DNA from: an uncultured bacterium
Lineage (GTDB): Bacteria; Patescibacteriota; Minisyncoccia; Moranbacterales; UBA2206
DNA length: 64,000 nt
Assembly: GCA_903831805.1 (NCBI GenBank)
Contig: CAIKZD010000007.1
Location: forward strand, 7,886 to 71,885
Reading direction: 5' to 3'
A model generated the notes under the pieces. That model saw only the letters and a program-made list of their open reading frames with translations, did not search any database and had not been told where the DNA came from. Shown here one piece after another: positions 9,057 to 64,000 of the stretch. Made by a program: the position numbers and the translations under genes. Each line of letters begins with the position of its first letter. Position 1 is the stretch's first letter.

Positions 9057-9120
9057 GCCCCTTTTTTAATTTGTCATTTGGATTTTTAACATTTATTTGA
9101 CATTGGAAATTGGGATTTTA
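8640..9120. mobile_element. IVS-like hairpin element carrying the four-helix-bundle ORF; paralog of the 23S helix-45 intervening sequence
   Basis: Left arm 8646..8700 and right arm 9062..9120 are inverted. The core AAAATCCCAATTTCCAATGTCAAATAAA is exact over 28 nt. Both arms match the two halves of the 23S insertion at 20278..20402. Confidence 0.6.
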
Positions 9121-9130
9121 GATTTATAAA

Positions 9131-13870: not shown

Positions 13871-14139
13871 TCTGAACCACCGATGCAGGTTCAAGTTCTC
13901 GATGCAGGTTCAGGTTTGTAACTTGGACCCTGGAGTTAACCATCGAAATGTTTAAACAAGAATTAAATTCAAAAAGCCCGTAAACTAAAAGAATCAGGTT
14001 ACAAACCTGCTCCTGCACGGAGGGGGTAAGAGAGAGGGAATATTGACGGGGATTGATAGATGTGATATATTTCCATTGTAATGGACAAATTACTAGATAA
14101 TTGTCCATTTAACTGGACAAATAATATAGTACTAAAATT

Positions 14140-15453: not shown

Positions 15454-15454
15454 G

Positions 15455-15510
15455 TCAATGTCCAGATCAACCGCAACGTGCAGTTCAAAAGGGGAGTGAC
15501 TATCAAATAA
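15455..15510 (+). repeat. Displaced or duplicated original 3' end of the giant surface-protein gene
   Basis: See 13803..13870. Confidence 0.55.
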
Positions 15511-15580
15511 AACGGTTTGACCCTTTTTTCAAAAACCTCTATAATTTAAAGCAAGTAAATATAAAATAATTAACACAAAT

Positions 15581-18285: not shown

Positions 18286-19504
18286 TAATAGCCCTTGACA
18301 TTATTTTCAGGCCTGCTATCATAGTAAAGCGTTAAGAAATTAGTATGTGATTCCTGGGGGATTGTGCCTAAGAAAAGGGGATAATTTCAAGGATGACTGA
18401 ATGATAAAATCAATCAAAAAACTAACTGAAAAAAGCGGGCTTGCCCCGCGATCGCGAAGTGATTTTGCGGGGTGAAACTTTTAGAAGTCTTTGAATTTGC
18501 TTCTAAAAAACTCCGCTCTAAAGCGGTTTTTAATTTGTGCGGAAATAGTCTTTCATAAAATGATTGTGAAAATTATTTTCCGCATCAAACGCACCTTAAC
18601 AATTAAATAGCTCTACTCAAATAAAAATCTTTTTGCATTCTGTGCGATTCGATTAAGTTTAGTGGAGCAAAGGTCTTAATCTGGATATTCAATGCCTACC
18701 GTTGGCGGGAATAGAATTGGATATTTATGATTAGTCATCTAATGTCGCGTAAGCAATGCGATATTAGATAAAAGTAGGTAAAAAAATTGCAATAATGAAA
18801 ACTGTCAGTTAAATAGAGTTAGTGATTTTAGTGATTGCTAACTGCTAACATTGACCCCGATGTAATGTCGGGGTGAAAAATTTAAGAGCGGTAGTACTAA
18901 TGCATATGGTGAATGCCTTGACACTAAAAAGCGATGAAGGACGTAGCTAGCTGCGATAAGCTTCGGGGAGGTGCTGAGCAACCTTTGATCCGGAGATTTC
19001 CGAATGGGGCAACCCCTCCGACTTTACGTCGGAGAACTTTAGCTGAATAAATAGGCTATTGTAGCGAACCCGGCGAACTGAAACATCTTATTAGCCGGAG
19101 GAAAAGACATCAACTGAGATTCCCCAAGTAGTGGCGAGCGAACGGGGAGAAGCCTAAACCATCAGTCGCAAGACCGGTGGGGTTGCGAGATAATTCTACT
19201 CGTTTAATCGGGGTAGGAAACTGTTTGTTAATAGAACGTCTCTGGAAAGAGCGGCCATAGAGAGTGAAAGCCTCGTATATGAAAACGAACAACGACTACG
19301 GAATTATTCTCAAGTAGGGCGGGACCGGAGAAATCCCGTCTGAATCTGGGGCCACTATTGCTCCAAGGCTAAATATTTTTAGTGATCGATAGCGAACGAG
19401 TACCGTGAGGGAAAGGTGAAAAGTATCCCGATGAGGGAGATGAAATAGTATCTGAAACCATATGCTAACGAAGAGTAGGAGCCGCATTCTTCACTGACGT
19501 TCAG

Positions 19505-19620
19505 AATGAATTTTTAATTTCCAATTTTTAATTTTTTAAATAAATCTTAATGTCTAAATTTTTAAACATTAAGAAATTTGAAATTATTTATAAAATTACA
19601 AAATTAAAAATTTAAAAATT
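19505..19620 (+). other. 23S intervening sequence at the helix-25 site
   Basis: A ~115-nt AT-rich insertion relative to the E. coli-type sequence at a known IVS site. Confidence 0.6.
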
Positions 19621-20277
19621 CGGAACGCGAGTGAAGAGTGTGGTGACTGCGTGCTTTTTGTAGAACGATCCAGCGAGTTAGTTTTGTGTCGTCCGGCTAA
19701 GCGACTTTGTCGCGGAGCCACAGTGAAAGCGAGCTTTAACCGGCGAACAACGATGGCACGAACTAGACCCGAAGCCAGGTGAGCTATTTATGAGCAGGGT
19801 GAATTTGCTGTAACAGGCAAAGGAGGCCCGAACCCACGCACCGTGCAACATGCGGGGATGACTTGTGAATAGAGGAGAAATTCCAATCGAACTTGGCGAT
19901 AGCTGGTTCTTCCCGAAATAGCTTGAGGGCTAGCGTTGGGACAACTATGTTTTGGAGGTAGAGCTACTGAATGAGGATTCGCGGTTCGCCGTAGGGTTCT
20001 CAACCAAACTCCGAATTCCAAAACAATTATCCCAGCAGTCAGAACTCCGGGGCTAAGCTCGGAGCTCAAAAGGGAAAAAGCCCATGACCGCCGTCTAAGG
20101 TCCCAAAATCTATGTTAAGTGGGAAAGGAGGTGAAGTTTCTTATACATCTAGGAGGTTGGCTCAGAAGCAGCCATCCTTTAAAGAGTGCGTAACAGCTCA
20201 CTAGTCTAGAGACTTTGCGCCGAAAATTCAACGGGGCTCAAACATAGTACCGAAGACGCGGATGCCGTACATAGTAC

Positions 20278-20402
20278 AGAATGTCAAAATCCCAATGCCA
20301 AATGTCAAATAAATTCCAAAATCCAAATGACAAAAATTCCAAATTAATTTGAAATTTAGTCATTTGACATTTATTTGAAATTTGAGCTTTGAAATTTGAA
20401 AT
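20278..20402 (+). other. 23S intervening sequence at the helix-45 site (imperfect long hairpin, no ORF)
   Basis: ATGTCAAAATCCCAATGCCAAATGTCAAATAAATTCC ... GTCATTTGACATTTATTTGAAATT forms an imperfect hairpin. It is homologous to the arms of the element at 8640..9120. Confidence 0.6.
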
Positions 20403-21128
20403 TCCGCACTGTGTGCGGCGTGGTAGGGAAGCGTTCCATACGCGCTGAAGCGGCATGCGTGAGCATCCGTGGAGTGTATGGAAGTGAGAATGCTGGAATT
20501 AGTAACCGCAATTGGAGTGAGAACCTCCGACACCGAAAGTCTAAGGTTTCCTGGGCAATGTCAATCATCTCAGGGTTAGTCGGTCCTAAGGCGAGGTCGA
20601 AAGGCGTAGTCGATGGACATAAGGTTAATATTCCTTAACTTCGGTATGATTCGATGGAGTGACGCATTTTAGTAGTTCTTGCCGATTATTGGATTTCGGT
20701 AGGGGTACTGAGGAAGTGAGACAGGCAAATCCGTTTCACAATATTCCAAGGTATTTCTGGAACTCGCCTCACCGGCGAGGAACAAGAATGAGCAGAGTGC
20801 CAAGAAAAGCTTCTAAGATTAGTCATATCGAAACCGTACTAAAACCGACACAGGTAGACTGGGCGAGTAGCCTAAGGTGAACGAGTGAACCTTCGTTAAG
20901 GAACTCGGCAAAACAGCGTCCGTAACTTAGGGATATGGACCGCCGACCGCAAGGTCGGCCGCAGCGAAAGATACCAAGCGACTGTTTACCAAAAACACAG
21001 GTCTCTGCAAACCCGTAAGGGGAAGTATAGGGGCTGACGCCTGACCAGTGCTGGAACGTTAACGGGAGAGGTGCAAGCCAATCCCCGAAGCGCCAGTGAA
21101 CGTCAGCGATAACTATAATCGTTCTAAG

Positions 21129-21913
21129 GTTCTGTAATTTTTTATAAAGATTACAGAAAGACTGGAACGATTATGGGGATGTAATGGTAAATAAACAGAA
21201 TAGTTAAAAAAGGAAAAATAACTGCCTAGTTGCGTAATTAATTACGTAATTGTCTTAAAACATTTAGCCGTATGCTGGGAACTCTGGTGAATCTGGAGCT
21301 ACTATGGTACAATTATTCCATAGATTATTTAATGGAAAAATATGCCAAGTAAAAAAGCTGCCAGTGCAGACAATCAGCAGGAAAGACTAAAAATGATTGG
21401 TTGGATAGTTGGTTATGTTGACGGAGAAGGATGTTTCTCGGTAAGTCTCTTTAGAAATAAAACTACAAAATTTGGGTGGCAAGTGTTTCCTGAATTTGTA
21501 GTTACGCAAGGCGAAAAAAGCAAGAAATCGCTTGAAATTTTGATAAAATTTTTCAAGTGTGGAAAAGTTTTCGTAAACAAAAGATATGACGATCATAACG
21601 AAAATGTTTATCGCTATTGTGTAAGGTCTAAAAAAGATTTAACTGAGATTATAATTCCATTCTTCAGAAATAATCAATTGAAAACGGCCAAGAAGGGAGA
21701 TTTTAAAATTTTTGCGAAAATCATTGAGATGATGAATGGAAATGTTCACTCAGAATTGAAAGGAGTAAAAAAAATTGCAAAAATGATTGAAAAAATGAAT
21801 CACAAAAAACCTTCTAAGTTTTTAGAATCCTCAGAGACTAAACGCTAGATTCGCCTTCTGGGCGAAAAATTATAGTCCGTTCTCTTGGGCGACCAAGAGT
21901 TAACACAAAAGAG
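21129..21913 (+). mobile_element. Group I intron in 23S at the position equivalent to E. coli 1917 (CTAAGGT|AGCGAAATTCC)
   Basis: The exon sequence stops at ...GTTCTAAGGT (21128) and resumes at AGCGAAATTCCTTGGCAGGTAAG (about 21914). The insert is ~785 nt and contains a homing-endonuclease ORF. Confidence 0.75.
21342..21848 (+). CDS. LAGLIDADG homing endonuclease (single-motif type)
   Basis: WIVGYVDGEGCFSV is the LAGLIDADG motif. The ORF lies inside the 23S intron. Confidence 0.85.
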   Translation: MPSKKAASADNQQERLKMIGWIVGYVDGEGCFSVSLFRNKTTKFGWQVFPEFVVTQGEKSKKSLEILIKFFKCGKVFVNKRYDDHNENVYRYCVRSKKDLTEIIIPFFRNNQLKTAKKGDFKIFAKIIEMMNGNVHSELKGVKKIAKMIEKMNHKKPSKFLESSETKR

Positions 21914-22519
21914 CGAAATTCCTTGGCAGGTAAGTTCTGTCCTGCATCAAAGGCGTAACGACTTGGTAACTGTCTTAACGAAGAGCTCGGTGAAATTGCA
22001 ATGACGGTAAAGATGCCGTCGACCTGCAGCAAGACGAAAAGACCCCGTGGAGCTTTACTACAACTTGGTATTGAATTTGAGATTATATTGCCTAGGATAG
22101 GTGGGAGACTTTGAAGCTTCGACTTCGGTCGAAGGGGAGTCAACCTTGTAATACCACCCTGTGTGATTTTAAATTCTAACCCTGGACTGTTATGAGTTTT
22201 TCTAAAACTTATGATAGAACTGGCAAAAAACAAAGTTGTGAAGTTATCAAAATCTAACAAAGTTTTTTGCGGTTCAAAATTATATCGTTTTGGTTATTCA
22301 TACCAGTCCGGGGACAGTGCCTGGTGGGTAGTTTGACTGGGGCGGTCTCCTCCTAAATGGCAACGGAGGAGTTTACAAAGGTCGGTTAGGTCCGGATGGA
22401 AATCGGATCGATAGTGCAAACGCATAAACCGGCTTTACTGCGAGACACATAAGTCAATCAGTCACGAAAGTGGAAGTTAGTGAACCGACTATCGCTTATA
22501 GGAGCGTAGAAGATCATCA

Positions 22520-22552
<33 letters not shown>

Positions 22553-22578
22553 CCTCCCAAGAGTTCACATCGACGGAG

Positions 22579-22638
<60 letters not shown>

Positions 22639-23342
22639 TGGCTGTTCGCCAATTAAAGCGGTACGCGAGCTGGGTTCAAACCGTCGTGAGACAGGTTGGT
22701 CTCCTATCTGCTGTAGGCGTTATTGCTTGAGAGGACTCTTTCCTAGTACGAGAGGACCGGAAAGAACGAACCTCTGGTGTACCAGCTGTTCCGCCAGGAG
22801 CATTGCTGGGTAGCTACGTTCGGACGGGATAACCGCTGAAAGCATATAAGCGGGAAGCCCACCTCAAGATTAGGCAATTCTTGATGCTTGCATCAAGATG
22901 ATTTCCTGGGAGATGACCAGGTTGATAGGTCTCAGGTCTAAGTGGAGTGATCCATTAAGCCGAGAGATACTAATAAATTAAACATTATCTCTCTTAAGTT
23001 TCGATTAGCGAATTGCCGCGAATGTTAACGCGAGTGTTTGCAAATTTATTTGCAATCTATTCGTTTTCTCATTCGCGAAACATTCGTGAGTCTGTTAGCA
23101 GTTAACAGTTTCTAAAAAAAACTGAAAAGCAATTTAACAAACTATCTCATATCAAGCGTTTTTAAGCGATTAAAGACGTTGCCATTTTTGTCTATGAGAA
23201 AATTAAAAAACAGTTTCAAGTTCATTTTGACAATTTTTACCCTCACGACTTTGACCCTGATTTTCTTTTTGTTTTTTTCTCCCATGATTAAAACTTTTTA
23301 GGATAATCAAAAATCAAATAACGTTAAAGATTTGAATGCAAA

Positions 23343-23849: not shown

Positions 23850-24908
23850 ATGAAAAAAGTTGCGAGCCGACCAATAGAGGGAATAATTGAGTTTGTAAAA
23901 CAAATGGGAACAGTCCACGAGGCTGAGCGCATGATTATTGAGGCAGGGGGAATGAGTATATTCCAGTGGGCAATTACCGATCCGAACTTCCGTTATGATC
24001 TGGTGGCATTTGCCAATGACTATGTCCCAAGTGCGCTTAACTATGCAGCTCTACTCAAATGGTTTCAAGACAACAAGCTGGAAAGGTTTCTTTCCACCGG
24101 CAGTCTTGAAAAAAACATCAAGGAGCAGGAAATTTTTTATCAGAGATTTTATGGTAAAAGTTTCCGCATCGACCGCAAAAAGATTTTTGTCGATGCCTGG
24201 AGATTGCCAGCTATCAAGGTTGGACTGAAGGCGGGCAGTATAAACATCGCTTTGCTCAAAGCTACTCCGGAAATCCAGTCTGAGGTGGAAATACAAATGA
24301 CAGAAGTGGAATTTTTCTTCGATCGGATAATGAAACCGCTCAAAGAAAATAGCTTCAGAATCTGGGCGGAAGAGGGAGTTGACCGCTGGACCAACTTGAA
24401 ACTGGCAGAGTTTTTGCGCCGCTGCAGTCCGACGGAGCCGGAAGATTTTGATGCCGAAGCTTTCAAAAAAGATTGGGCGAAAGAAATAATTCGCATAATC
24501 AAAAAGAAAAGAGTGTTGCCGAATGTGACGACGGGCGCACTGGAAATAATTTTCACCAGCAACTTGGTGAATATCCCCAGTGACCAAATCATCGTCAATA
24601 AAAACGGCGAAATAGTTACTCCGGATGACCGCTCCTATGTTTCGGCCATAGCCAAAAACGTGAGAGTGCTTTCCAATGCAGAAGGGATTATTCTGGCGAG
24701 CCAGCTTTTCGCCAAGGATGGAACCTATCTGGCTCCCAATACTTGGGAATGGAGACGGGACTTGGTTGAGCATCAAGATAAAAAAACCAGCCCCTTTGCT
24801 TCAGTCGCGATCGTCGATTCTGGTGGCCACGAGTTCGGGCTCAGCTCCGCTGTGCTGACTGCTCCGATGGCGGCGGCCGTTTGCGTCTTGCCCTATAATT
24901 TCGGGTAG
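23850..24908 (+). CDS. DGR2 target protein with a C-terminal variable region
   Basis: The ORF track opens at 23721. I place the start at the internal Met MKKVASRPIEG (23850), which follows GAGAGG. The last ~36 codons are VR2. Confidence 0.6.
   Translation: MKKVASRPIEGIIEFVKQMGTVHEAERMIIEAGGMSIFQWAITDPNFRYDLVAFANDYVPSALNYAALLKWFQDNKLERFLSTGSLEKNIKEQEIFYQRFYGKSFRIDRKKIFVDAWRLPAIKVGLKAGSINIALLKATPEIQSEVEIQMTEVEFFFDRIMKPLKENSFRIWAEEGVDRWTNLKLAEFLRRCSPTEPEDFDAEAFKKDWAKEIIRIIKKKRVLPNVTTGALEIIFTSNLVNIPSDQIIVNKNGEIVTPDDRSYVSAIAKNVRVLSNAEGIILASQLFAKDGTYLAPNTWEWRRDLVEHQDKKTSPFASVAIVDSGGHEFGLSSAVLTAPMAAAVCVLPYNFG
24797..24906 (+). repeat. DGR2 variable repeat (VR2)
   Basis: Aligns with 25224..25333. 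About 20 substitutions, all at template adenines (VR mostly G), plus one 1-nt indel. Confidence 0.8.
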
Positions 24909-25223: not shown

Positions 25224-25333
25224 TGCTTCAGTCGCAATCGTCAATTCTGATGACCACGAGTTCAAGCTCAACTCCAACAATGCTGACAACTCCAATGACA
25301 ACAACCGTTTGCGTCTTGCCCTAACACTTCGGG
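25224..25333 (+). repeat. DGR2 template repeat (TR2)
   Basis: Adenine-rich non-coding copy of VR2 (AAC/AAT-rich). Confidence 0.8.
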
Positions 25334-52980: not shown

Positions 52981-53233
52981 AATCAAATAAATGGCCATAA
53001 TTTGACACAAACCGGTTTAGTATGGTAGATTTAAGTACTGGGATATTCCTATTTTTTCCATGAAAATTGGACCAATGGTGAATGATTGCAGTACCAAAAA
53101 CTCAAAACCAAAAATAAAAACTCAAACCGTTACGCGATAAATCTTTCTGTTGGCAGGATGGTAGGTTGAGATTTACTTTTGATTTTTGAGTTTATTTTTT
53201 TAAATTAAATTTTTTTTGAATACATAAAAACAT

Positions 53234-54490
53234 ATGGCAGAAATAAAACCCCCGGTAGAAACTTTTGCAAGAATTAAGGTCATCGGTGTCGGCGGATCCG
53301 GCGGACATGCTATTTCCCGCATGATTGAATCGAAATTGAAAGGCGTGGAATTTGTGGCCATTAATACTGATGCGCAAGATTTGCATCATAACAAAGCCGC
53401 CGAGAAAGTGCATATCGGGAAAAACTTGACCAAGGGTCTGGGGGCCGGCATGAATCCGGATGTGGGACGCCAAGCCGCTGAAGAAAATCGTGATGAGATT
53501 CAAGAAATTTTGAAAGGGGCCGATATGGTGTTTGTCACTTGCGGACTAGGTGGCGGCACAGGTACCGGGGCAGCCCCGATTGTGGCGGAAACGGCCAAAG
53601 AATTGGGAGCCTTGACCGTGGCGGTCATCACCAAACCTTTCAGTTTTGAAGGCGCACAGCGTCGGGCTATCGCCGAAGAAGGTTTGGAAAATTTGCGGGA
53701 ACGCGTGGATACGCTCATCACTATTCCCAACGACAAACTGTTGCAAATCATTGATAAAAAAACTACCCTCATCAATTCTTTTAAAATTGTGGATGATGTT
53801 TTGCGCCAAGGGGTGCAAGGCATTTCTGATCTTATTACGAAACCGGGCATAGTCAACGTGGACTTTGCAGACGTGAAAGCTATTATGTCCAATAGTGGTT
53901 CCGCGCTCATGGGCATCGGTGTCGGCTCAGGCGAATCTCGCGCCCTGGACGCAGCTAAGGCGGCCATCAACAGTCCGCTTTTGGAACTGTCCATCGATGG
54001 GGCGAAAGGTGTGCTCTTCAATGTCAGCGGCTCGACTGACCTGACCATGCTCGAAATCAATGAAGCGGCCAATGTCATCACCGAATCCATCGATCCAAAC
54101 GCGAAAGTGATTTTTGGCGCAGTGGTGGATGAAACGATGAAAAAAGGTGAAGTGCAGATCACGGTGGTGGCTACCGGCTTTGATGCGGAAAACATCAAGG
54201 AATCTCCAGTCGAAAAACTCTCCCGCATGGCCAAAGATGACTCGCGCCGAGAAGATTCACGTCGAGAAGACTCGCGCCGCAAAGAAAGAGAAATGGATTC
54301 GGAACTAGATTTGGAATTGGAACCGAAAATGACTTTTCCGGAAAAATTCGGATCCAAAATGATCATCGAAGAAAAAGTGCCGCCGAAAAAACAGAACAAT
54401 TTCATGGCGACGCAAAAGAACAAAGAGCTGGAAGACGAAGACGACGAACTCGAAATCCCGGCGTTTATAAGGAGAAAGATGGGGAAATAG
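53234..54490 (+). CDS. ftsZ: Cell division GTPase FtsZ
   Basis: [14 protein letters not shown] and the tubulin signature [13 protein letters not shown]-terminal [16 protein letters not shown] repeats, then the conserved tail [16 protein letters not shown]. Confidence 0.9.
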
Positions 54491-54499
54491 TCCCGGATT

Positions 54500-54565
54500 A
54501 TTTTAGGAAAAACTTTGAATTAAATTCATAAATCAGCTCTGCTCAAGCAGGGCTTTTTTGTTGCA
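54500..54565 (+). terminator. Intrinsic terminator after ftsZ
   Basis: CAGCTCTGCTCAAGCAGGGCTTTTTTGTTGC. Confidence 0.6.
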
Positions 54566-54644
54566 AAAATTAGCAATTCAAGCTACCATTTATGTAAACA
54601 TTAACCTTGGTGCGGAGTTTGGTATAAAATATTGTGTAGTTATT

Positions 54645-55430
54645 ATGGGTTTGATGAAGAATAATATGCCTGAAAAACAGATTATAATCGATGATTTGAG
54701 AATACATTATTATCAAAGTGATGATTTTGATGGAAAAAATACTACTGTTTTTTTGCATGGTTGGAATTCGGAATCAACACATTTAAAAAGTATTTTCCAA
54801 GAAGTTGATAATTGTATCGCGCTAGATCTCCCAGGCTTTGGTAAGAGTGATCGGCCGAATGCGGTGTGGGGCGTAGCGGAATATGCTGATTTATTGCGAA
54901 AGTTTCTGGAAAAACTGGCCATAGAAAATCCGATCTTAGTTGGACATTCTTTCGGTGGCAGTACAGCCATGAAATATCTATCTCAAGACGGCGCGGCTAA
55001 AAAATTGATTCTTTTGAGTGCAGCCGGAATAAGAAAAACCGGGGTGAAAATACACATATATAAAATTATAGCTAAAATTGTTGGATTTTTTTTGAAAATT
55101 CCAGTATTGACACACTTTCGTGATAGAATTAGAAAGAAAGCATACAAGATGATGGGTTCCGAAGACTATATAGAAGCGGGCGTATTAAAGGAGAGCTACA
55201 AGAAAATAATCCGTCAAGATTTGAGCGAGGAAATGAAAAAAATCAAAATCGAAACGGTTCTGATTTGGGGAGAAAACGACACGGCTACGCCGCTAGACCA
55301 TGGGAAGCGTATGCAAGAATTGATTAGCAATTCCGAGCTATTTATCATAAAATCAGCCGGACACTTTGCCTTTATCGATCAGCCGGAGGAATTTAAGAAA
55401 ATATTTTTACGCGAAATCAATGTTACTTAG
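54645..55430 (+). CDS. Alpha/beta-fold hydrolase
   Basis: VFLHGWNS; nucleophile elbow GHSFGG. The start is uncertain; the ORF track opens at 54558. Confidence 0.7.
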   Translation: MGLMKNNMPEKQIIIDDLRIHYYQSDDFDGKNTTVFLHGWNSESTHLKSIFQEVDNCIALDLPGFGKSDRPNAVWGVAEYADLLRKFLEKLAIENPILVGHSFGGSTAMKYLSQDGAAKKLILLSAAGIRKTGVKIHIYKIIAKIVGFFLKIPVLTHFRDRIRKKAYKMMGSEDYIEAGVLKESYKKIIRQDLSEEMKKIKIETVLIWGENDTATPLDHGKRMQELISNSELFIIKSAGHFAFIDQPEEFKKIFLREINVT

Positions 55431-56790
55431 AAATCTTATCTATATACTTCAGCTCAATCTCTACGAGACGAAAAAATTCTTGCGTTTTGCCTACACGCAC
55501 CTGACTTGGTGGAAGTTGGAAAAACGCGCGGCACTTGTTTGGACGAATAAAGTTAGACTTATCTATAGTGTAACGGCTTTTTTGCTGGCGGTAGTCGCAA
55601 TTTTTTCTTTTTGGAAATTTTGGCTGGGTAGCTTAGCGATTGTCAGTTTGGAAATCGTCATGTTGCCCTTTTTTGTGAGCTTAGCGAATATCCTGATTGG
55701 TCCACTAGATAAGTATTTAAAAAACAAACTGATTGCCCGGGCGAAAGACATCTTGCGAAAATATGATGATGTAGTGGTTATCGGGATAGCCGGCAGTTAC
55801 GGGAAAACTTCGACACGGGAAATTATGGCAACTATACTGGAAGAAAAATTCCGTACGTTCAAATTGACAGAAAACATAAACACAGACGTCGGCATTGCTG
55901 ATTTTATCGTTAAAAATCCTGGTTTTCTACGGAACAATAAAATCTTCATCGTCGAGATGGGGGCATACCAGATAGGTGACATCAAAAATATTTGCGAATT
56001 GGTCCGTCCGGAGTATGCTATTCTCACCGGTGTTAATGAATCTCACCTGGAGCGTTTTAGCAGTCTGGAAAACATCATTCAGGCTAAATTCGAACTGCCG
56101 CAAGAAACTAGAAATATGTCAGTTCTGAATCTGGACGATGAAAATATCAGGAAAAATTATAGCCGGTTTAATTTGAAAAATATCTCAATGGTTTCCCAGG
56201 ATGAAATAGGAAATATAGAAAGTCAAAAAAATTTTTCTGGTCTCAAATTTGAAATAGCCGGAGTGAATTTCAAGACCAAGCTTTTAGCGAAGCACAACGT
56301 TTCACTTATCCTGCTGGCGGCTAAGATTGCAAAGGAATTAGGGATGACGATGGAGGAAGTGGCTAGTGCGGTGGAAAAAATCGAATATATACCGCATCGG
56401 ATCGAACCAATCTACAATTCACAAACAAATGTCTGGGTGATTGACGACAGTTATAATGGAAATTTTGCTGGAATTATGAGCGGTCTCGAGGTGCTAGCTC
56501 TCTCTACCGGACGTAAACTAGTTCTCACTCCCGGTCTCGTTGAACTGGGCAAAAAAACGAAAGAAGTGCATAATAGGATTGGTCGTTTATATGCAAAAAA
56601 CAAGATAGATTTGGTGATGTTAGTTAAAAGCCCGGCTGCACCGCATATCATTGCGGGTATGGAGGGGGAAGGTTTCAGAAATTATCAAGTTTTCAATTCG
56701 ACGGAAGCGGCGCATGCCGCTTTGCCACAGATAATCCGAAACGGCGACACAATCATTTTTCAAAATGATCTGCCGGATAATTATTTTTAA
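55420..56790 (+). CDS. murF: Mur ligase family (UDP-MurNAc-pentapeptide synthetase MurF-like)
   Basis: P-loop GIAGSYGKTSTRE. The ATG at 55420 overlaps the upstream stop (ATGTTACTTAG). Confidence 0.7.
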   Translation: MLLRNLIYILQLNLYETKKFLRFAYTHLTWWKLEKRAALVWTNKVRLIYSVTAFLLAVVAIFSFWKFWLGSLAIVSLEIVMLPFFVSLANILIGPLDKYLKNKLIARAKDILRKYDDVVVIGIAGSYGKTSTREIMATILEEKFRTFKLTENINTDVGIADFIVKNPGFLRNNKIFIVEMGAYQIGDIKNICELVRPEYAILTGVNESHLERFSSLENIIQAKFELPQETRNMSVLNLDDENIRKNYSRFNLKNISMVSQDEIGNIESQKNFSGLKFEIAGVNFKTKLLAKHNVSLILLAAKIAKELGMTMEEVASAVEKIEYIPHRIEPIYNSQTNVWVIDDSYNGNFAGIMSGLEVLALSTGRKLVLTPGLVELGKKTKEVHNRIGRLYAKNKIDLVMLVKSPAAPHIIAGMEGEGFRNYQVFNSTEAAHAALPQIIRNGDTIIFQNDLPDNYF

Positions 56791-56800
56791 ACATAATAGT

Positions 56801-57967
56801 ATGAATATTGGAATATTTTTTGGCGGAAAGAGTCCAGAACATGATGTGTCTATCATAACGGGGGAACTGGTCATCTCAGAAATGAAAAAGATGGGACTGC
56901 AAGTTACGTCGGTCTATCTTGGAAAAGGCGGCGAGTGGTACATTGATGAACGATTAGGCAAATTAAAATTTTTCCAAGATAAGAATTATAGCGAAAAACT
57001 GAAGGATTTTGAGAACTATTCTCTTGATTTGAAAAATTCCCGCGGTAAATTGGTTTTTGAAAAGGCCGGATTCATGTCGAAAAAAATCACTATTGATCTG
57101 GCCTTCCCTTGCTTTCACGGTTCCAACGGTGAGGATGGAACTATTCAAGGACTTTTTGAAATTATCAATGTGCCTTATATCGGTTGCGACGTAGCTTCGT
57201 CCGCAATTTCTTTTGACAAAATTCTGACTAAGCTTTTATATCAAAGTCTGAACATTCCAGCAACAAAATTCATCCATTTTAGTGGCCGCGATTGGGACAA
57301 CAATAAGAATGGGGTAATCGAGAATATAAAAGCTAATTTGCGCTTTCCACTTTTCGTGAAGCCGCCAAGGCTGGGTTCATCGATCGGTATCACGCGCGCC
57401 AAGGATGACAAAGAATTAGAGTTCGGAATAGAAGTAGCATTGCATTACGGTGAAAAAGTTTTAGTCGAGGAGGGGGTGGATAATCTCGCGGATATTACTT
57501 GTTGTATTATCGGCAACGGCGAGCCGATAGCATCCTTGGTGCAGGAGTCGGTTTTTGAGAGCGATATGTTTGATTTTAATGAAAAATATCTGAAAGACGG
57601 TGGGGCACAAACGGGTAACGCGCAAAATCGCCTGGTCATTCCGGCGCGGTTGGATGAGAAGACGACTGTGGAAGTTCAGGAAATGGCTAAAAAAATTTAC
57701 GTCAATATCGGAGCGAGTGGTATCGCCCGGGTGGATTTTCTTTTCGATAAGAAAACAAGCAAGGTTTATGCCAATGAAATCAACCCTTTGCCGGGCACGC
57801 TCTATCATCATCTCTGGAAGGCGAGCGGCCTAGAATTGGCCGATCTTATCAAAAAACTTTTGGAATATGCCACAGAACGGCATGCAGCTAAAAACAAATT
57901 AACTTACACTTTTAAGACCGATCTTATGGCATTTGCTGGCTCAGTGAAATTGAAGATGGAAAAATAA
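56801..57967 (+). CDS. ddl: D-alanine--D-alanine ligase
   Basis: MNIGIFFGGKSPEHDVSI...; ATP-grasp ...RVDFLFDK...NEINPLPG. Confidence 0.85.
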   Translation: MNIGIFFGGKSPEHDVSIITGELVISEMKKMGLQVTSVYLGKGGEWYIDERLGKLKFFQDKNYSEKLKDFENYSLDLKNSRGKLVFEKAGFMSKKITIDLAFPCFHGSNGEDGTIQGLFEIINVPYIGCDVASSAISFDKILTKLLYQSLNIPATKFIHFSGRDWDNNKNGVIENIKANLRFPLFVKPPRLGSSIGITRAKDDKELEFGIEVALHYGEKVLVEEGVDNLADITCCIIGNGEPIASLVQESVFESDMFDFNEKYLKDGGAQTGNAQNRLVIPARLDEKTTVEVQEMAKKIYVNIGASGIARVDFLFDKKTSKVYANEINPLPGTLYHHLWKASGLELADLIKKLLEYATERHAAKNKLTYTFKTDLMAFAGSVKLKMEK

Positions 57968-58161
57968 AAAGCAGGCTGCCTAATTGGATGGTATGGACTT
58001 TTCTATTTTTTTGGATAAATTAATTGAGTCGGCGGTTAAGCGATATGCGAGGGAAAATAAGTTAAAAAATAATTGATAGTATATTTCAATTAGGAACCCC
58101 CAGCGTTATTTAGGCCTGTTTTTGCTTTGCCTCGTTGCTTTTTTTGTGCTATAATTACATT

Positions 58162-58416
58162 ATGGAACTTAACGATTTCGCTAAAAAAAGGCCATATTTG
58201 TTCTGGTCTACTAATGATTTTGAGAACCTTTCCGAAGAAATAATCGTCGAGACGGTTTTGAATTTGGGCACTTGGGAGGATACGCAAGAACTTATTGAGA
58301 TACTGGGCATGGAAAAAACAGCCTCGATTTTTCGGAAAAAAGCGGAGATAAAAAGAAATAACTTTCGTCCAGGGATAAAAAATTATTTTGAATTATACTT
58401 CAAAAAATATGCATAA
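58162..58416 (+). CDS. Small hypothetical protein, putative antitoxin partner
   Basis: An 84-aa ORF (MELNDFAKKRPYLFWS...) overlaps the downstream nucleotidyltransferase gene by 8 nt. Confidence 0.35.
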   Translation: MELNDFAKKRPYLFWSTNDFENLSEEIIVETVLNLGTWEDTQELIEILGMEKTASIFRKKAEIKRNNFRPGIKNYFELYFKKYA

Positions 58417-59020
58417 GGAAATTTTATCGAAAAAACAGGCCGAGCTTTTGCCGCAACTCAGAGAATTTTCACGCGATTTCGCGCTAGTCGGCGGCACAGC
58501 CATCGCCCTTCATTTGGGGCACCGCCAATCGATTGATTTTGATCTGGCTGTTGTAAATACAAAAATTGATGCGACCGGTATCCGAAAAAAAATTCTGAAA
58601 TTTGAGAAAATTGAAACGGTCCTTATTGATAGCGGGGATGAATATACGTTCATTGCTGGTGGTATAAAGTTTACTTTTATGAATTATCCTTTTTCGCTGG
58701 AGTTTTCTGAAAAAATAGAGGATATCATTGCGCTTCCCGATGTTGTCACTCTTTCAGCCATGAAAGCTTATGCTTTGGGAAGGCGCGCTAAGTGGAAAGA
58801 TTATGTCGATTTATATTTCATTGCGGAAAAGTTAGGTTCGATACTGCCTATAATTGAAAAATCAAAAGAGATTTTCGGAACTGAATTTAGTGAAAAAAAC
58901 TTTCGCTCACAACTGGCTTATTTTGAAGATATCGATTATTCGGAAAAAGTTATTTTTATGGAAGGCTTTGCAGTGGGAGATGCGGAAATAAAAAAGAAGC
59001 TTCTGGTATGGTCTGTTTAG
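58409..59020 (+). CDS. Nucleotidyltransferase of the AbiEii/type IV toxin-like family
   Basis: ...FALVGGTAIALHLGHRQSIDFDL... matches the PF08843-type motif. Confidence 0.5.
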   Translation: MHKEILSKKQAELLPQLREFSRDFALVGGTAIALHLGHRQSIDFDLAVVNTKIDATGIRKKILKFEKIETVLIDSGDEYTFIAGGIKFTFMNYPFSLEFSEKIEDIIALPDVVTLSAMKAYALGRRAKWKDYVDLYFIAEKLGSILPIIEKSKEIFGTEFSEKNFRSQLAYFEDIDYSEKVIFMEGFAVGDAEIKKKLLVWSV

Positions 59021-59044
59021 ATTTATTCAGAATAGCCTTATGGT

Positions 59045-59205
59045 GACCCAAAAGAATAAAGAACTGGAAGACGAAGACGACGAACTCGAAATCCCAGCTT
59101 TCATCCGGAGGAAGATGGGGAAGTAGACAAAAATGACCTCATGAAATTCATTAAAATCTTTAAAAAACTCTGTATAAACAGAGTTTTTTGTTGCAGTAGG
59201 CGACT
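59045..59205 (+). repeat. Diverged duplicate of the ftsZ 3' end plus its terminator
   Basis: GAACTGGAAGACGAAGACGACGAACTCGAAATCCCAGCTTTCATCCGGAGGAAGATGGGGAAGTAG is close to 54425..54490. The hairpin+TTTTTTGTTGC matches 54530..54565. Confidence 0.7.
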
Positions 59206-59257
59206 GTACTTTTTATCCCCGGGGATATATAATTATTGAGTATCAATTTTTTTAATC

Positions 59258-60187
59258 ATGATTTTTATGAGGGACATGCAGAAAAATTTTTCCTTGATGA
59301 TTGCGCCGTCTTATCGTTGTAATGCCAATTGCCAATATTGCTATACCAAGGGCTATATCAGCAAATTTAAAAAAGATATGGATCTTTTGACTTTTATTGG
59401 TTTGGTTGAGGCTCATCAAAAACATGAGAACCTAAACCTGAGCATTATTGGTGGAGAGCCGACTATTTGGAAACATATTAACAATGCCCTGCTCTATTGC
59501 AGATTAAGAAAGGTTAAAGCGACAGTTTTCAGTAATGGACTCGAAAAATTGCGGATTATGCCGAGCCGAATGTATCTGAATTCTTCTCAGTATTTTGAAA
59601 AAAACAGGCGGGAAAAATTCATCGAAAGTTTGGAATTTTATTCAAAAAAGAAAGTTAAAACAGTTTTGCGCTATAATGTTGAAGGAAATTGTTCTGATGA
59701 CAAGTTGGATGAGTTGATTGCGTTGGCGGTAGAATATGAAGCAGGCATTCATTTGGCCTTAGTTGTTCCGTATACAATCGACAAAGCTCTTGGCAAGCGA
59801 ATTTTTGAGATGCTGCAAAAAGTTGTTGCAGCTGGCATAGTCTGTCGTTCAGCTAATCCAATTCCACCTTGCATGTTTGATGCTGTTCAGCTTGAGTGGA
59901 TGAGAAAAAATGTCGGCTATTATTCCGCTTGTGATCTGGGCAGTATCCCACTCATCAATCCGGATGGAAAGACTGTCCAGCCATGCTCCAAAATGTTTTT
60001 GTTTAAAGAAATGAAAAAGGACGGACTTTCAAAAAACGAGATAAAATTAATGTATCAAAAAGAAATGGAGACGATAAAAAACAAACTTCCCATGGAAAAA
60101 TGTTACCAGTGCGAGCATTTCATCAACGAAGAATGTTTTGGCGGTTGTATGGCTTCCCGGGCGAATGAGTTCTATGGATGTGGATAG
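59258..60187 (+). CDS. Radical SAM enzyme with a C-terminal SPASM/twitch-like Cys cluster
   Basis: CNANCQYC (CxxxCxxC) near the N-terminus. C-terminal CSKM...CYQCEHFINEECFGGC. Confidence 0.65.
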   Translation: MIFMRDMQKNFSLMIAPSYRCNANCQYCYTKGYISKFKKDMDLLTFIGLVEAHQKHENLNLSIIGGEPTIWKHINNALLYCRLRKVKATVFSNGLEKLRIMPSRMYLNSSQYFEKNRREKFIESLEFYSKKKVKTVLRYNVEGNCSDDKLDELIALAVEYEAGIHLALVVPYTIDKALGKRIFEMLQKVVAAGIVCRSANPIPPCMFDAVQLEWMRKNVGYYSACDLGSIPLINPDGKTVQPCSKMFLFKEMKKDGLSKNEIKLMYQKEMETIKNKLPMEKCYQCEHFINEECFGGCMASRANEFYGCG

Positions 60188-60205
60188 CTTGTTATTTCAA
60201 AAATC

Positions 60206-61870
60206 TTAGTTGATATCGTAACTTTCAGGATTTCCTTTTTTCAAGCAATACATTTCATTGGCGTAAGTCGGCAGGAAAAATCTTTTAGTTTTGGGATTGT
60301 AGGCAATTCTATTGGTGATTCTTTCGGTAGTGGTGAAATGCCCGGTTATTTTTCCAGTCAAGAGATCTATTTCAAGCATGATGCCGGAAGTTGAACCGAC
60401 GTAGATCTTGCCTTCAATTACTTGCGGCTGGGCGAAAATCCGGCCGCCACAGTCGGTGTGCCAGTTGAGTTTTCCACTGTCAAGATTGACGCTATAGAGA
60501 TGTTTGTCCATTGAGCCGAAATAGACGTTATCGCCGTGAACCAGCGGAGTGGAATAGATGGGTTCTTTAGTTTGGAACTTTCCTTTGACTTTTCCGGAGT
60601 CGATATCGAGGGCGTAGACATTCTTATCAAATGATCCAAACAAGAGCAGATTGCGTTTGACATCAAAAACCAAAGAAGCCTTAATTTCTCCGCCGGTGCG
60701 ATATTTCCATTTCAATTTTCCTGTTTCGGCGTCAAAGAGATAGACATAAAAATCATTACACCCAACGGCCACCACTTTTCTCTCTGGGCAATAGGCGGGG
60801 GAACAATGAGTGAAATCTGGCATACGATAGTCCCAAACTTTTTTGCCAGTTTTAAGGTCTAGGGCGGTTAGGCCACCTTGTTTTTTGAATAATCCGAACT
60901 CTAAGCCGATGAACAATATTCCTAACTCAGGCGCGACAGCCGGAGAAGATCCGACAAATTCGGCGTCCATATTTTTCCAGCGCAGGCGGCCGGTATTTTT
61001 ATTAATAGCATAAACATTACCGTCATACGCCCCGAAATAGACAGTATCTTTGTATATGGCCGGTGAAGACAAAATTATTTTGTCAGATGAGACGCTGTAT
61101 CCGGTCTCTTCGAATTTCCAAGCTACGGTGCCATCATTTTGATTGAGCGCCCAAAGACAGCCATTATCAGCGCCGAAATAGACTTTTTCCTCGTCGAGCA
61201 CTGGCGATGATTTTCCGAGTCGCAGGAAAAAAGCCGGATTAGGACTGGCGAATCTCCAAAAAAGTTTGAATTTCTGTGTTTCTTGGATAATTTTTTCTGG
61301 AATAGAGAGTCCGATATCCGCCAGGCTATACAAGGAATATAGCGAGATGTTTTTTTGCGCTAGAATTTCTTTATTTTCATCTCTAAAACTGACCAGGACG
61401 AAAGCTTTCGTAGCTTTTTTCTCAGCATATTCTAAAACTTTGGCTTGACGCAGGAGTGTGCCGCCGCTATTGGTCAGATCATCCACCAGGATTATTTTTT
61501 CATCGTTCAATTTCCCTTCAATGATTTTTTGCAAGCCGGTTGGTTTTCTGGATTTTCTAATGAAAAAACCATTGACGGGTTTCCCGATTTTTTGACTGTG
61601 CAGTACGATGGCACTGAGCAAGGGAATGGCGGCGATTTCTTGGCCGCCAACTTGGAAAGGGTACTCTTTTTCGAATTGATGCCAAAAAATTTCGACAATT
61701 AACTCCAATGCCTGCGGGTCAAGAAAGATATTTCTAAAATCCAGGAGCCAAGATTTCTCTTCGGATTTTTCTCCATTAGACGAAAAAGATGGTTGCTGCT
61801 CGCCGGTGATGAGAACATCTTTTTTGATTATTTCCAACAGGAGTTCTTTTTTTCTGGTAATTCCATCCAT
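60206..61870 (-). CDS. Fusion protein: N-terminal type-I phosphoribosyltransferase-like domain + C-terminal PQQ-repeat beta-propeller
   Basis: PRT motif KIILVDDLTNSGGTL. Repeated ...VYFG..DG.LYA.D..TGK..WKY.. propeller blades. Confidence 0.55.
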   Translation of the reverse strand: MDGITRKKELLLEIIKKDVLITGEQQPSFSSNGEKSEEKSWLLDFRNIFLDPQALELIVEIFWHQFEKEYPFQVGGQEIAAIPLLSAIVLHSQKIGKPVNGFFIRKSRKPTGLQKIIEGKLNDEKIILVDDLTNSGGTLLRQAKVLEYAEKKATKAFVLVSFRDENKEILAQKNISLYSLYSLADIGLSIPEKIIQETQKFKLFWRFASPNPAFFLRLGKSSPVLDEEKVYFGADNGCLWALNQNDGTVAWKFEETGYSVSSDKIILSSPAIYKDTVYFGAYDGNVYAINKNTGRLRWKNMDAEFVGSSPAVAPELGILFIGLEFGLFKKQGGLTALDLKTGKKVWDYRMPDFTHCSPAYCPERKVVAVGCNDFYVYLFDAETGKLKWKYRTGGEIKASLVFDVKRNLLLFGSFDKNVYALDIDSGKVKGKFQTKEPIYSTPLVHGDNVYFGSMDKHLYSVNLDSGKLNWHTDCGGRIFAQPQVIEGKIYVGSTSGIMLEIDLLTGKITGHFTTTERITNRIAYNPKTKRFFLPTYANEMYCLKKGNPESYDIN

Positions 61871-61890
61871 AAGTTTTTGGTTAGCCCGGA

Positions 61891-62631
61891 TTACTTGCTA
61901 AGGAGTGTCATATACACCGTGTCCTCATCCTCGTTTTCGATATCTAGCATTTCATTGGTTCTTTGGTTATGAAAGCCCACGCTGTTGCAACACTTGATGC
62001 CAAGGGCGGAAGCGGTCAGGGCAAAATTGTGGTTCAGGTGGCCCGCCTCCAAAAGGGTGATGCGATAGCCGCGATTATCATATTTCATGAAATTTCTGTC
62101 CCAAACTGCCGTAGTGAAAAGCACCACTGCGGCCAGTCTTGACCAAGGATAGAACAATCCTTCTATGATCCCGCCCATATATTCAGGATCAATGGTCAAT
62201 GTCTCCAGGGCGTTGTCCTTAACGTTGAAATGATATATGCCGGGAATCATACCTTCGACACGTTGGATTACGGCGTATACTTCCAGTGGATAGCGCGCTC
62301 CGCCGGAAGGATAGAACCGGCGAACAGCTTCTCCTTCGACATCCGGAGTTCTTATGCCTGCCGAATAGGATAAAATAGTGGACAGTTCGTCGAAGGATAT
62401 TTTTTTTGTCCAATCAAACTCCCTCTCGGAATGGCGATTTTCCAAGCTGTTTTTTAACATTCCTAAATCTAATAAATTTTTGGACAGTTCTTTTTTGGGG
62501 AATCGCGGATAACTTTTGTGATAAATCTCTTCCCATTCTTTAGGCCAATATTGAGAATCGGTAGGCGGAGTGCCAATGGCAAAATCAAAGTTAGCTTTTT
62601 TATGGAATTTTTTAGAAAATATGCCTTTCAT
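61891..62631 (-). CDS. SagB-type (TOMM/McbC-like) nitroreductase-family dehydrogenase
   Basis: RHSEREF, RRFYPSGGARYPLEVY and PGIYHF match the SagB/ThcOx family. Confidence 0.65.
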   Translation of the reverse strand: MKGIFSKKFHKKANFDFAIGTPPTDSQYWPKEWEEIYHKSYPRFPKKELSKNLLDLGMLKNSLENRHSEREFDWTKKISFDELSTILSYSAGIRTPDVEGEAVRRFYPSGGARYPLEVYAVIQRVEGMIPGIYHFNVKDNALETLTIDPEYMGGIIEGLFYPWSRLAAVVLFTTAVWDRNFMKYDNRGYRITLLEAGHLNHNFALTASALGIKCCNSVGFHNQRTNEMLDIENEDEDTVYMTLLSK

Positions 62632-62650
62632 AGGATTGTAGTTTTAAAGT

Positions 62651-64000
62651 TTAACTGAAAGGGTGGGGTTCTTGACAGAGTGTTTCAGCCGGAAGATAGC
62701 CGGTTTTTTTTGGGACTTCGTGCAGTCTTTTACCGCCAAGATAAGGCAATTCTTCATCCAAATGCATTGGTTGAAGTTCTGGGATGATAACTTGAACACT
62801 GCGCAAGCCTATTTTTTTCACCGCTGGAGTGGAAAGTTCTACGTAGCAAGCTTCATATTTTTTATCCCCCAATTCTTTTATGAGCAGCTGAAGCTTATCT
62901 TTGTAATATTTTTCACCGTCTGTTTTTTCTTGAGTATTGAAAAAATTCTCTTCCGTTTCCAAATTTAATTTTATTTTTTCGCCTTGTGTCATGAAATCCA
63001 AGCGAGGCATATTTTCCGGGCGAGCCCAATAGATCATGCGGTCAATCATATTAAATTTTTTCAAGTCCGGAAGTGGAGATTCTTTTTTAATATCCCAATT
63101 TTTCTTCAGATACATTCGGATGGAGAAAGCTTCGGTTAGCGCGCCCAAGATAGCTGATTTTAAATCTAATTTAGCGCTGTTTCCAATGGCAAAAGCCGGA
63201 CCATTGCCGCTTCTGTCCAAAATGATAGCGGAAACAATGGAAGCGGAAAAATCAGTGGGAAGTTTGACTAGATATACTTCTAAGCCATATCTTTTGAACA
63301 TTTTATAAACCTTTTCCAAGTCTTCGTCTTGAAAAGAAAGGTGTTCAAAATCCAAAACCGGTGGAGAAAGTTTGTTAAGATAGGATATGATGTAGGCGTC
63401 TCTTTCGATTATCTCCAGAATTCCCTTAACAATCGCTTCTTCCAGTGGTCCGGAGGTTGTGGCCGCGCCGGTAGTGATGCAATGGCGTAACAGTGGCTCT
63501 TTGTCGTTGCCTATGCCAGTCCCTTTCACGTTCCTATTGAAATAGCTAGAATTTATCAGTTGGGCCGGGCAGAAAATATTTTTATGCGGAGCGTGTCCGG
63601 TCAAAGAGATGGCTGGTATCCAACCAAAGACAGCGTTTTGGTCAAAATTCATCCAATTGCAACTCTTTTTTTGTTCTTCGGAAAACCCGGCCAGTTTAAA
63701 AATGTTTAGGGCTTTAGATTTAATTTTTGCATAAGGAAGATGCTGAATGTTTTGCAAAAGATGGTCATTGGTTTTCCAAAGGCTTCTCTCGGTTGCTTCC
63801 CCAATAGCCTTCCATAGAGCGGATTCTTCATTGAAAAAATCGCCGCCTGAACTGCCGAGGTTCATTTTTTGCATAGTTATGGAGAATCGATGAAAAAACG
63901 GCTCGTCGTAAAATTTTGGGCTTTTTATAATTTTTCCAATTATTCCGATGGCTTGCAATTTTTCCGCCGTGCTAATGGCACTAAAGAGTTTCGAGTCAGT
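62651..64000 (-). CDS. YcaO-domain protein (azoline-forming cyclodehydratase-type); the N-terminus continues beyond the window
   Basis: GSSGGDFFNEESALWKAIGEATERS; GTGIGNDKE; EAIVKGILEIIERDA. The frame stays open upstream of the TTG at 63958 through 64000, so the gene is probably partial. Confidence 0.7.
   Translation of the reverse strand, partial: TDSKLFSAISTAEKLQAIGIIGKIIKSPKFYDEPFFHRFSITMQKMNLGSSGGDFFNEESALWKAIGEATERSLWKTNDHLLQNIQHLPYAKIKSKALNIFKLAGFSEEQKKSCNWMNFDQNAVFGWIPAISLTGHAPHKNIFCPAQLINSSYFNRNVKGTGIGNDKEPLLRHCITTGAATTSGPLEEAIVKGILEIIERDAYIISYLNKLSPPVLDFEHLSFQDEDLEKVYKMFKRYGLEVYLVKLPTDFSASIVSAIILDRSGNGPAFAIGNSAKLDLKSAILGALTEAFSIRMYLKKNWDIKKESPLPDLKKFNMIDRMIYWARPENMPRLDFMTQGEKIKLNLETEENFFNTQEKTDGEKYYKDKLQLLIKELGDKKYEACYVELSTPAVKKIGLRSVQVIIPELQPMHLDEELPYLGGKRLHEVPKKTGYLPAETLCQEPHPFS

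Follow-up and report, generated by a model that had tools for sequence, protein, structure and literature searches.

Elements that integrate in the 3′ end of a gene, such as e14 and phage 21 at icd of Escherichia coli or SGI1 at trmE, bring a replacement gene end with them. At icd, insertion of e14 or phage 21 leaves a duplicated, alternative 3′ end, and these elements have an integrase of their own and a single fixed att site. Another type of footprint, insertion accompanied by a target duplication that is long and of variable length, has been described for restriction-modification gene units devoid of mobility genes (Nobusato et al. 2000, Gene 259:99; Furuta, Abe and Kobayashi 2010, NAR 38:2428, PMC2853133): a start or stop codon is often included in the repeats and the target gene survives (PMC2853133). 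How toxin-antitoxin modules move without transposase or integrase is poorly understood, and in the literature searched we found no description of long target duplication for toxin-antitoxin cassettes. Here we analyzed a 64-kb stretch of the genome of an uncultured Candidatus Moranbacteria (Patescibacteria, also named the candidate phyla radiation or CPR), called the window hereafter and used for all coordinates unless another locus is named. In this window, the 3′ end of the cell division gene ftsZ and its terminator are repeated on the far side of a 4.6-kb block, which contains a trio of housekeeping genes (hydrolase, murF and ddl) followed by a compact cassette of a DUF6922 gene and an AbiEii-family gene, presumed from their sequences to be an antitoxin/toxin pair. 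We propose that the right-hand copy represents the far side of a long duplication of the target, produced or carried in when the cassette inserted at the ftsZ 3′ end, and that the trio was relocated there separately; we would give this reading a probability of about 0.6.

The ftsZ gene (53234-54490, plus strand, 418 aa) closes a conserved ybeY-dgkA-ftsA-ftsZ run and was assigned from its translation, from the Tubulin and FtsZ_C Pfam domains of an identical protein and from synteny in at least 80 relatives. An earlier note on this DNA had claimed that the ftsZ tail and its terminator are duplicated around the block. Alignment confirmed this claim and refined the limits to 54392-54565 for the left copy A (174 nt) and 59028-59195 for the right copy B (168 nt), two direct repeats on the plus strand lying 4636 nt apart. 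The coding part of the repeat comprises 99 nt (33 codons; 54392-54490 in A). Over the final 87 nt (29 codons) there are 11 mismatches (87.4% identity), ten of them synonymous and a single one changing Ala to Val, while none of 100,000 simulations with 11 random substitutions left one amino-acid change or fewer. The 40-nt spacer between the stop codon and the hairpin is at the level of random sequence, with 24/43 identical positions compared to a mean of 24.7 in shuffled sequence. The terminators are identical at 25/36 positions and their stem carries a compensatory C-G to T-A change. Both consist of a GC-containing hairpin and a U-tract, as expected of a Rho-independent terminator, and are thus predicted to terminate transcription: the hairpin of A (54535-54554, followed by TTTTTGTTGC) and that of B (59166-59183, followed by TTTTTTGTTGC) fold with -14.7 and -18.0 kcal/mol (z -3.2 and -4.9), respectively. 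The motif TTTTTTGTTGC is found at only two sites in 64 kb, those in A and B, for an expectation of 0.34. A three-way alignment with a relative (locus L092) showed that what follows the coding part is, in A as in B, homologous to an ftsZ downstream region of this relative.

Copy B contains an intact open reading frame (ORF) of 28 codons (59040-59126) encoding the FtsA-binding peptide of FtsZ, with an in-frame stop at 58989, and it begins 7 nt after the end of the AbiEii gene. A direct repeat of a gene end including the downstream terminator is also what a second ftsZ, or a segmental duplication of the ftsZ region, would leave behind once mostly deleted. The corresponding check, proposed in the earlier note, came out negative: tblastn with FtsZ matched only residues 387-418 at B, and since no further ftsZ-like sequence lies upstream of 59028 and the AbiEii gene ends so close, B is not the remnant of a longer ftsZ paralogue. 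No second ftsZ was present nearby in the relatives examined, and such an origin would not explain why the cassette is framed in this same way at unrelated genes, as described below. We consider it scarcely credible.

A key comparison was provided by locus L094 (GCA_964466615.1), whose FtsZ is 89% identical to that of the window. Here the order is ftsZ, terminator, DUF6922, AbiEii, second tail copy and terminator, and the two tail copies, 53/54 identical, are only 1037 nt apart. The alignment of L094 4082-5037 with window 58143-59134 is uninterrupted and runs from the promoter of the cassette across AbiEii and into B, with the same right junction; thus the tails bracket the toxin-antitoxin pair alone. 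The L094 insert of ~1 kb carries the two cassette genes only, with neither integrase nor excisionase. In the window, the cassette starts on the plus strand with a promoter-like site (58127-58155; TTGCCT, 17 nt, TATAAT, with TG) that is kept in L094. Then follow the 84-aa DUF6922 protein (58162-58416; PF21956, E 4e-6, slightly below the curated cut-off), presumed to be the antitoxin, and the 203-aa AbiEii-family nucleotidyltransferase (58409-59020), presumed to be the toxin; they are 82% and 73% identical to their L094 counterparts, respectively. The -10 box ends 7 nt upstream of the antitoxin ATG, a position that suggests a leaderless or near-leaderless cassette mRNA. The L094 tail copies share synonymous codons absent from all other tails compared which, together with their 98% identity, point to a recent or gene-converted duplication. 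From this comparison, it is improbable that the 4.6-kb block and the repeat arose together as one unit. The earlier note had taken a 4.5-kb block as the recurring unit: the gene-tail repeat beyond the inserted DNA stands, but the unit that recurs is the ~1-kb DUF6922-AbiEii cassette, as indicated by the L094 tails and by the position of the trio between holA and rpsT in relatives.

We then considered sites without insert. The ybeY-dgkA-ftsA-ftsZ run is conserved in 80 GTDB species, in which homology to the window ends downstream of ftsZ. A second ftsZ tail within 10 kb of ftsZ was found in none of the 80, so that it was rejected as a general feature of Moranbacteria; neither murF nor ddl was found within this distance in any of them. 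A single tail, hence an empty site, was seen in the four close relatives inspected, each with a different set of genes downstream: HxsD and at least six radical SAM genes in L086 (FtsZ 94% identical; region 7565-17430), a gene of no known type in L087/88 (93%), an ABC transporter in L089 (91%; region 11485-14372), and in L093 (90%; region 10236-16511) a 1100-aa protein followed, ~5 kb downstream of ftsZ, by an orthologue of the PQQ-like beta-propeller gene found on the minus strand of the window. In the closest relatives, DNA homology to the window stops at the ftsZ stop codon. The ftsZ 3′ end is therefore a synteny breakpoint, and judging from these downstream regions it behaves as an island or replacement hotspot in the Moranbacteria clade. 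Together with the cassette-only bracketing in L094, the single-tail relatives support the view of the earlier note that the duplicated tail is the mark of DNA inserted at the ftsZ 3′ end.

Comparison of the right-hand side gave indications on what lay there originally. The radical SAM gene of the window (59267-60187, plus strand) has a 70% orthologue in L092, where it sits after an ftsZ-type tail and terminator, and the spacer, the terminator and the next bases match B. With the PQQ-like orthologue of L093, this indicates that what lies to the right of B is the ancestral neighbourhood of ftsZ, starting with the radical SAM gene. As the L092 sequence starts inside the tail, this tail is not assignable to a full ftsZ, and the other orthologue context that could represent the empty site, L091, includes only 91 nt upstream of the gene. 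As a separate observation, the region directly to the right of B (59267-63958) could be a peptide-modification cluster: it comprises the plus-strand radical SAM gene and, on the minus strand, the PQQ-like beta-propeller, nitroreductase and YcaO cyclodehydratase genes. No precursor peptide was identified in it.

To examine the cassette beyond ftsZ, JGI metagenomes were scanned with an AbiEii alignment, yielding 80 loci of which 59 had flanks long enough to be tested. Direct repeats immediately outside the gene pair were present at 19 of these 59 loci, compared to 2 of 41 shifted control windows; several shorter contigs also had flanking repeats. The repeats measure 14-142 nt, are 86-100% identical and mostly lie 930-1420 nt apart, and the downstream copy mostly begins 15-60 nt past the toxin stop codon. 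An all-against-all comparison of 23 repeats gave matches only between the duplicate contigs L111 and L115 and between the window and L094. The repeats often cover the last codons and stop of a neighbouring gene, sometimes with its terminator, as for a histidine kinase (L119), a reductase (L158), a GT11 glycosyltransferase (L150) and a LamG protein (L151); in the last case the copies differ mostly at silent sites. At L099 (7569-7650 / 8653-8733) and L142 (154-181 / 1249-1276), it is a gene on the minus strand, lying to the right of the cassette and convergent with it, whose 3′ end has been duplicated; insertion is thus not bound to one orientation relative to the target gene. No conserved termini or inverted repeats were seen by eye in 20 junctions, and no integrase or transposase was seen at the repeat-flanked loci. 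An ftsZ tail was found at a single one of the 80 loci, L096, which is the same organism as L094; a general association of AbiEii cassettes with ftsZ was therefore rejected.

These loci also bear on two suggestions of the earlier note. A terminator- or hairpin-targeted mechanism found no support, the repeats elsewhere being of unrelated sequence and some lacking a hairpin. The idea of a mechanism recurring in this genome holds in part: the pattern does recur, across other genomes and around this cassette family, but no other instance appeared within the 64-kb window.

The ftsZ locus shares its topology with a site-specific island, and the block could be the degraded form of one: a tyrosine or serine recombinase would have acted at the ftsZ 3′ end, the element carrying a replacement gene end, A and B would represent attL and attR, and the integrase would since have been lost. 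The gene 3′ end is indeed reconstituted with the other copy displaced, the differences are mostly silent, the region downstream of ftsZ varies among species like an island hotspot, and toxin-antitoxin pairs are typical island cargo. But Pfam analysis of all five genes of the 4.6-kb block detected no integrase or transposase, an excisionase is likewise lacking in the block as in L094, and no att core is common to the insertions. Indeed, the same cassette family occupies many targets with unrelated repeats of widely varying length, which a site-specific enzyme would not produce. A phage or plasmid using the ftsZ tail as attP was rejected as well, since a degenerate tail pattern gave 0 matches in 2.9 million viral contigs. 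Altogether, we find a degraded island quite improbable.

The divergence of the two copies was examined by comparison with the tails of L086 and L087. In the 5′ part, A differs from these at 6 and 4 sites and B at 9 and 9 sites; in the 3′ part, A differs at 7 and 6 sites and B at 1 and 1. A and B thus form a reciprocal mosaic centred on a 32-nt identical block (Fisher p ~0.06). The last 20 codons of B match L087 at 17/20, compared to ~55% codon identity over the rest of ftsZ. As A and B differ almost exclusively at silent positions, and as each of them is similar to tails from other lineages of Moranbacteria, recombination between lineages is indicated. The simplest reading is that A and B diverged within ftsZ genes that were functional in different lineages, and that recombination in the tail brought them together, one of them being presumably of horizontal origin. 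Silent-only divergence therefore does not require selection on B.

Alternatively, B could be retained as a gene: its 28-codon ORF would be read from the cassette mRNA to give the C-terminal peptide of FtsZ in free form, which would either compete for FtsA or be a substrate for the radical SAM enzyme encoded next to it. The ORF is intact, with an ATG start and its own terminator, silent changes outnumber replacements 10:1, and the non-coding spacer is at the random level while the coding part is not. Its missing Shine-Dalgarno sequence was rejected as a counter-argument, for a Shine-Dalgarno-like core precedes only 3 of the 34 window genes and its absence says nothing about translation. The L094 copy speaks differently: it has 17 codons, no ATG, GTG or TTG start and in-frame stops just upstream, and still matches the tail of its own ftsZ at 53/54 positions, a conservation that cannot be due to translation. 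A start-codon ORF is thus found in the window copy and not in its L094 counterpart, making a peptide function unlikely. Moreover, the ATG of the window copy is an internal Met of the FtsZ linker, only ~3-4 changes fall on the B branch, too few for a selection test, L094 has no radical SAM gene downstream, and other cassettes carry tails of unrelated genes. We judge retention of B as a gene very unlikely. Similarly, we would hardly defend the boldest combination, in which DUF6922-AbiEii cassettes are self-spreading, recombinase-less addiction modules in CPR moving by long target duplication and the B ORF is translated into a free FtsA-binding peptide coupling the module to cell division.

In the window, unlike L094, the repeats also enclose the trio, all on the plus strand: an alpha/beta hydrolase gene (54645-55430), murF (55420-56790) and ddl (56801-57967), assigned by Pfam, by gene calls on an identical contig and by their contexts in relatives. 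L176 and L178 come from the samples that also yielded L088 and L087; in both loci, holA and rpsT/ruvA flank the trio, and homology to the window is confined to 54675-57966. The trio is thus relocated in the window, where it would represent a separate housekeeping piece moved between copy A and the cassette. We also looked between ddl and the cassette (57968-58140) for a decayed third copy of the tail, which would mark the trio as a nested insertion, by Smith-Waterman alignment with A, B and the L094 tail, and rejected it: scores were no better than those of shuffled sequences, the sole marginal match (p ~0.013) being to the L094 B terminator.

It could be argued instead that the whole 4.6-kb block, from the 3′ part of A through the terminator, the trio and the AbiE pair to the 5′ part of B, entered as one piece. 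The donor would have been a relative already so arranged, and the route a Campbell-type single crossover, or homologous recombination on one side, within the ftsZ tail, L094 being a deletion derivative or an independent event. The reciprocal mosaic around the 32-nt block is what a single crossover predicts, with everything between the copies incoming, and a separate insertion of the trio has left no footprint. Also, the trio is only 64-76% identical to that of the best relatives, compared to 91-93% for FtsZ and FtsA. Yet YbeY too is only 74-79% identical, so the divergence of the trio fits vertical descent, and murF and ddl are normally single-copy essential genes with a conserved holA-rpsT context in relatives. 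L094 shows the same right junction with the cassette alone, and at least 19 other loci have repeats ~1 kb apart around the pair only. Entry in one piece appears unlikely to us on these grounds.

Insertion of the cassette with duplication of its target would then proceed as follows. A compact, integrase-less cassette of ~0.9-1.05 kb, with its own promoter, DUF6922 antitoxin and AbiEii toxin, would insert at the ftsZ 3′ end, and B would be created, or carried in, with this insertion. The duplication includes the last 33 codons together with the stop codon and the terminator. On the left, ftsZ therefore retains its terminator and a complete FtsA-binding C-terminal peptide, while the terminator of the right-hand copy probably now ends the cassette transcript. 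Cassette and one flank would move between related genomes by recombination in the conserved tail, rather than one copy having decayed in place. Finally, the hydrolase-murF-ddl trio would have moved in separately, to its present position between the left copy and the cassette.

Several points weigh against this proposal. Of the 59 testable cassettes, 40 are without detectable repeats, and empty sites are demonstrated for the ftsZ case only, a target found in just two lineages. The window copies are 4.6 kb apart and not ~1 kb, which requires an extra event, the arrival of the trio, whose junctions carry no footprint. The repeats differ in extent, with 99 nt of coding sequence and the terminator in the window compared to 54 nt clearly repeated in L094 (downstream similarity, z ~2.7); one ancestral event and two independent ones would both fit these extents. 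Since relatives with an FtsZ closer than that of L094 have no cassette, losses or horizontal spread are required. Lastly, the resident copy could not be chosen from ~90 sites: the half-by-half comparison suggests a foreign 3′ half in A whereas codon identity suggests that B is unusually near L086/L087, and with the mosaic at p ~0.06 agreement between the two tests is too poor for a choice.

As to the source of the DNA, the best FtsZ matches are Moranbacteria metagenome-assembled genomes. An identical FtsZ is encoded on contigs from several ENA and JGI samples, and the DNAs compared are 99.99-100% identical over 53001-60300. In one ENA sample (ERZ1426627), a 7984-nt contig with the identical FtsZ has murF shortened to 340 aa, followed by a minus-strand gene of 421 aa replacing ddl and the cassette; either a structural variant of the block or an assembly error could account for it.

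The earlier note saw at the ftsZ block the same pattern as at a 'giant' gene elsewhere in the window, but this turned out to be wrong. The repeats there (7904-8035 / 19497-19620, 8648-8695 / 20280-20327 and 9066-9119 / 20344-20397) are AT-rich non-coding sequence, and their right-hand copies lie inside the 23S rRNA gene (18887-22994), which measures 4108 nt compared to a 2925-nt model and whose AT-rich inserts share the repeats with intergenic sequence. One of the left-hand pairs lies on either side of an ORF (8610-9056) from the 23S-rRNA-intervening-sequence protein family, and this ORF is located immediately upstream of the giant LamG/TIG gene of 1579 aa. By their sequences, these are AT-rich elements related to 23S rRNA inserts, a phenomenon different from the ftsZ tails. 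Besides ftsZ, a single gene in the window has its tail repeated downstream, and this pair belongs to a complete diversity-generating retroelement (1-2258). The variable repeat (VR) of this element, at a gene 3′ end (88-235), and its template repeat (TR, 996-1143) are 91% identical, all 13 mismatches falling on template adenines; a bAvd gene (284-640) and a minus-strand reverse transcriptase gene (1164-2258) complete it.

Two further types of repeats were noticed in the window. Two IS200-like Y1 transposase paralogues (PF01797; 2441-3118 and 26881-27555) are ~70% identical at the DNA level, and beside the first a 37-nt near-perfect palindrome occurs three times (3133-3169, 3574-3610 and 4026-4062) with ~445 nt spacing, an arrangement that resembles a transposase associated with repetitive extragenic palindromes, with its hairpin repeats. 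Just downstream of the 5S rRNA gene region, segments 24797-24905 and 25224-25333 contain two adjacent direct repeats of 52-53 nt, 79-87% identical and 427 nt apart.

These results show that one toxin-antitoxin cassette family bears a footprint of the restriction-modification type at about one third of the loci examined. This suggests an insertion route shared by 'addiction' genes, extended to CPR bacteria. The 3′ end of the essential ftsZ gene is a hotspot of recombination and insertion in Moranbacteria, the genes downstream differing in every close relative, and the conserved sequence coding for the C-terminal peptide may serve as homology anchor. For genome scans, the lesson is that downstream repeats of gene tails had at least three unrelated causes in a single window: cassette insertion, a diversity-generating retroelement and AT-rich relatives of rRNA inserts.

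How does the locus compare with known systems? With the retroelement VR/TR pair it shares the repetition of a gene 3′ end downstream (~0.9 kb away in the window example), but no adenine-specific pattern is seen between the ftsZ copies, and a reverse transcriptase is lacking nearby. Like integron cassettes, the unit is small and promoter-proximal, a toxin-antitoxin pair as they often are, and bounded by repeats of ~60-140 bp. Integron attC sites, in contrast, are related imperfect palindromes for the integron integrase, while the repeats here are local target copies, unrelated between loci, with no integrase. As with e14 and phage 21 at icd, an essential or central gene is cut near its 3′ end, the insert supplies a replacement end, and the displaced end forms a direct repeat with mostly silent differences; unlike these elements, the cassette has no recombinase and occupies many unrelated sites with repeats of different length.

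In the case of the type IV AbiE systems, the likeness concerns the gene pair itself: the toxin gene is of the AbiEii nucleotidyltransferase family (PF08843, E 8.3e-11, 42.7 bits for a cut-off of 22.5), is second in a two-gene operon with its own promoter and overlaps the first gene. The upstream partner, however, is the 84-aa DUF6922 protein and not a winged-helix AbiEi antitoxin, no AbiEi match being obtained in Pfam or PADLOC, and the PADLOC matches to AbiEii are weak (E ~1e-4).

The closest resemblance is to the restriction-modification units of Furuta et al. In both cases, a small selfish 'addiction' gene unit without mobility gene is flanked by direct repeats above 30 bp whose length and sequence depend on the site, often lying across a stop or start codon with the target gene intact, and whose sequence is single in related genomes without insert. 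The repeats measure 174 and 168 nt in the window, 54 nt in L094 and 14-142 nt at the 19 other loci, and they vary between sites; at ftsZ the sequence is single in L086, L087/88, L089, L093 and the 80 GTDB species, and the inserts are well within 20 kb (the 4.6-kb block and the ~1-kb L094 insert). Several differences stand out. The cargo is a DUF6922-AbiEii pair, the hosts are CPR/Patescibacteria and the target is the C-terminal peptide of the essential FtsZ; the copies are diverged alleles (87%) with essentially silent differences, pointing to transfer between lineages; and in the window the repeats also enclose a 3.3-kb housekeeping trio. Thus, as the cargo is a toxin-antitoxin pair instead of a complete restriction-modification unit, we regard the ftsZ insertion as an event of this same kind, in which the addiction module belongs to another class.

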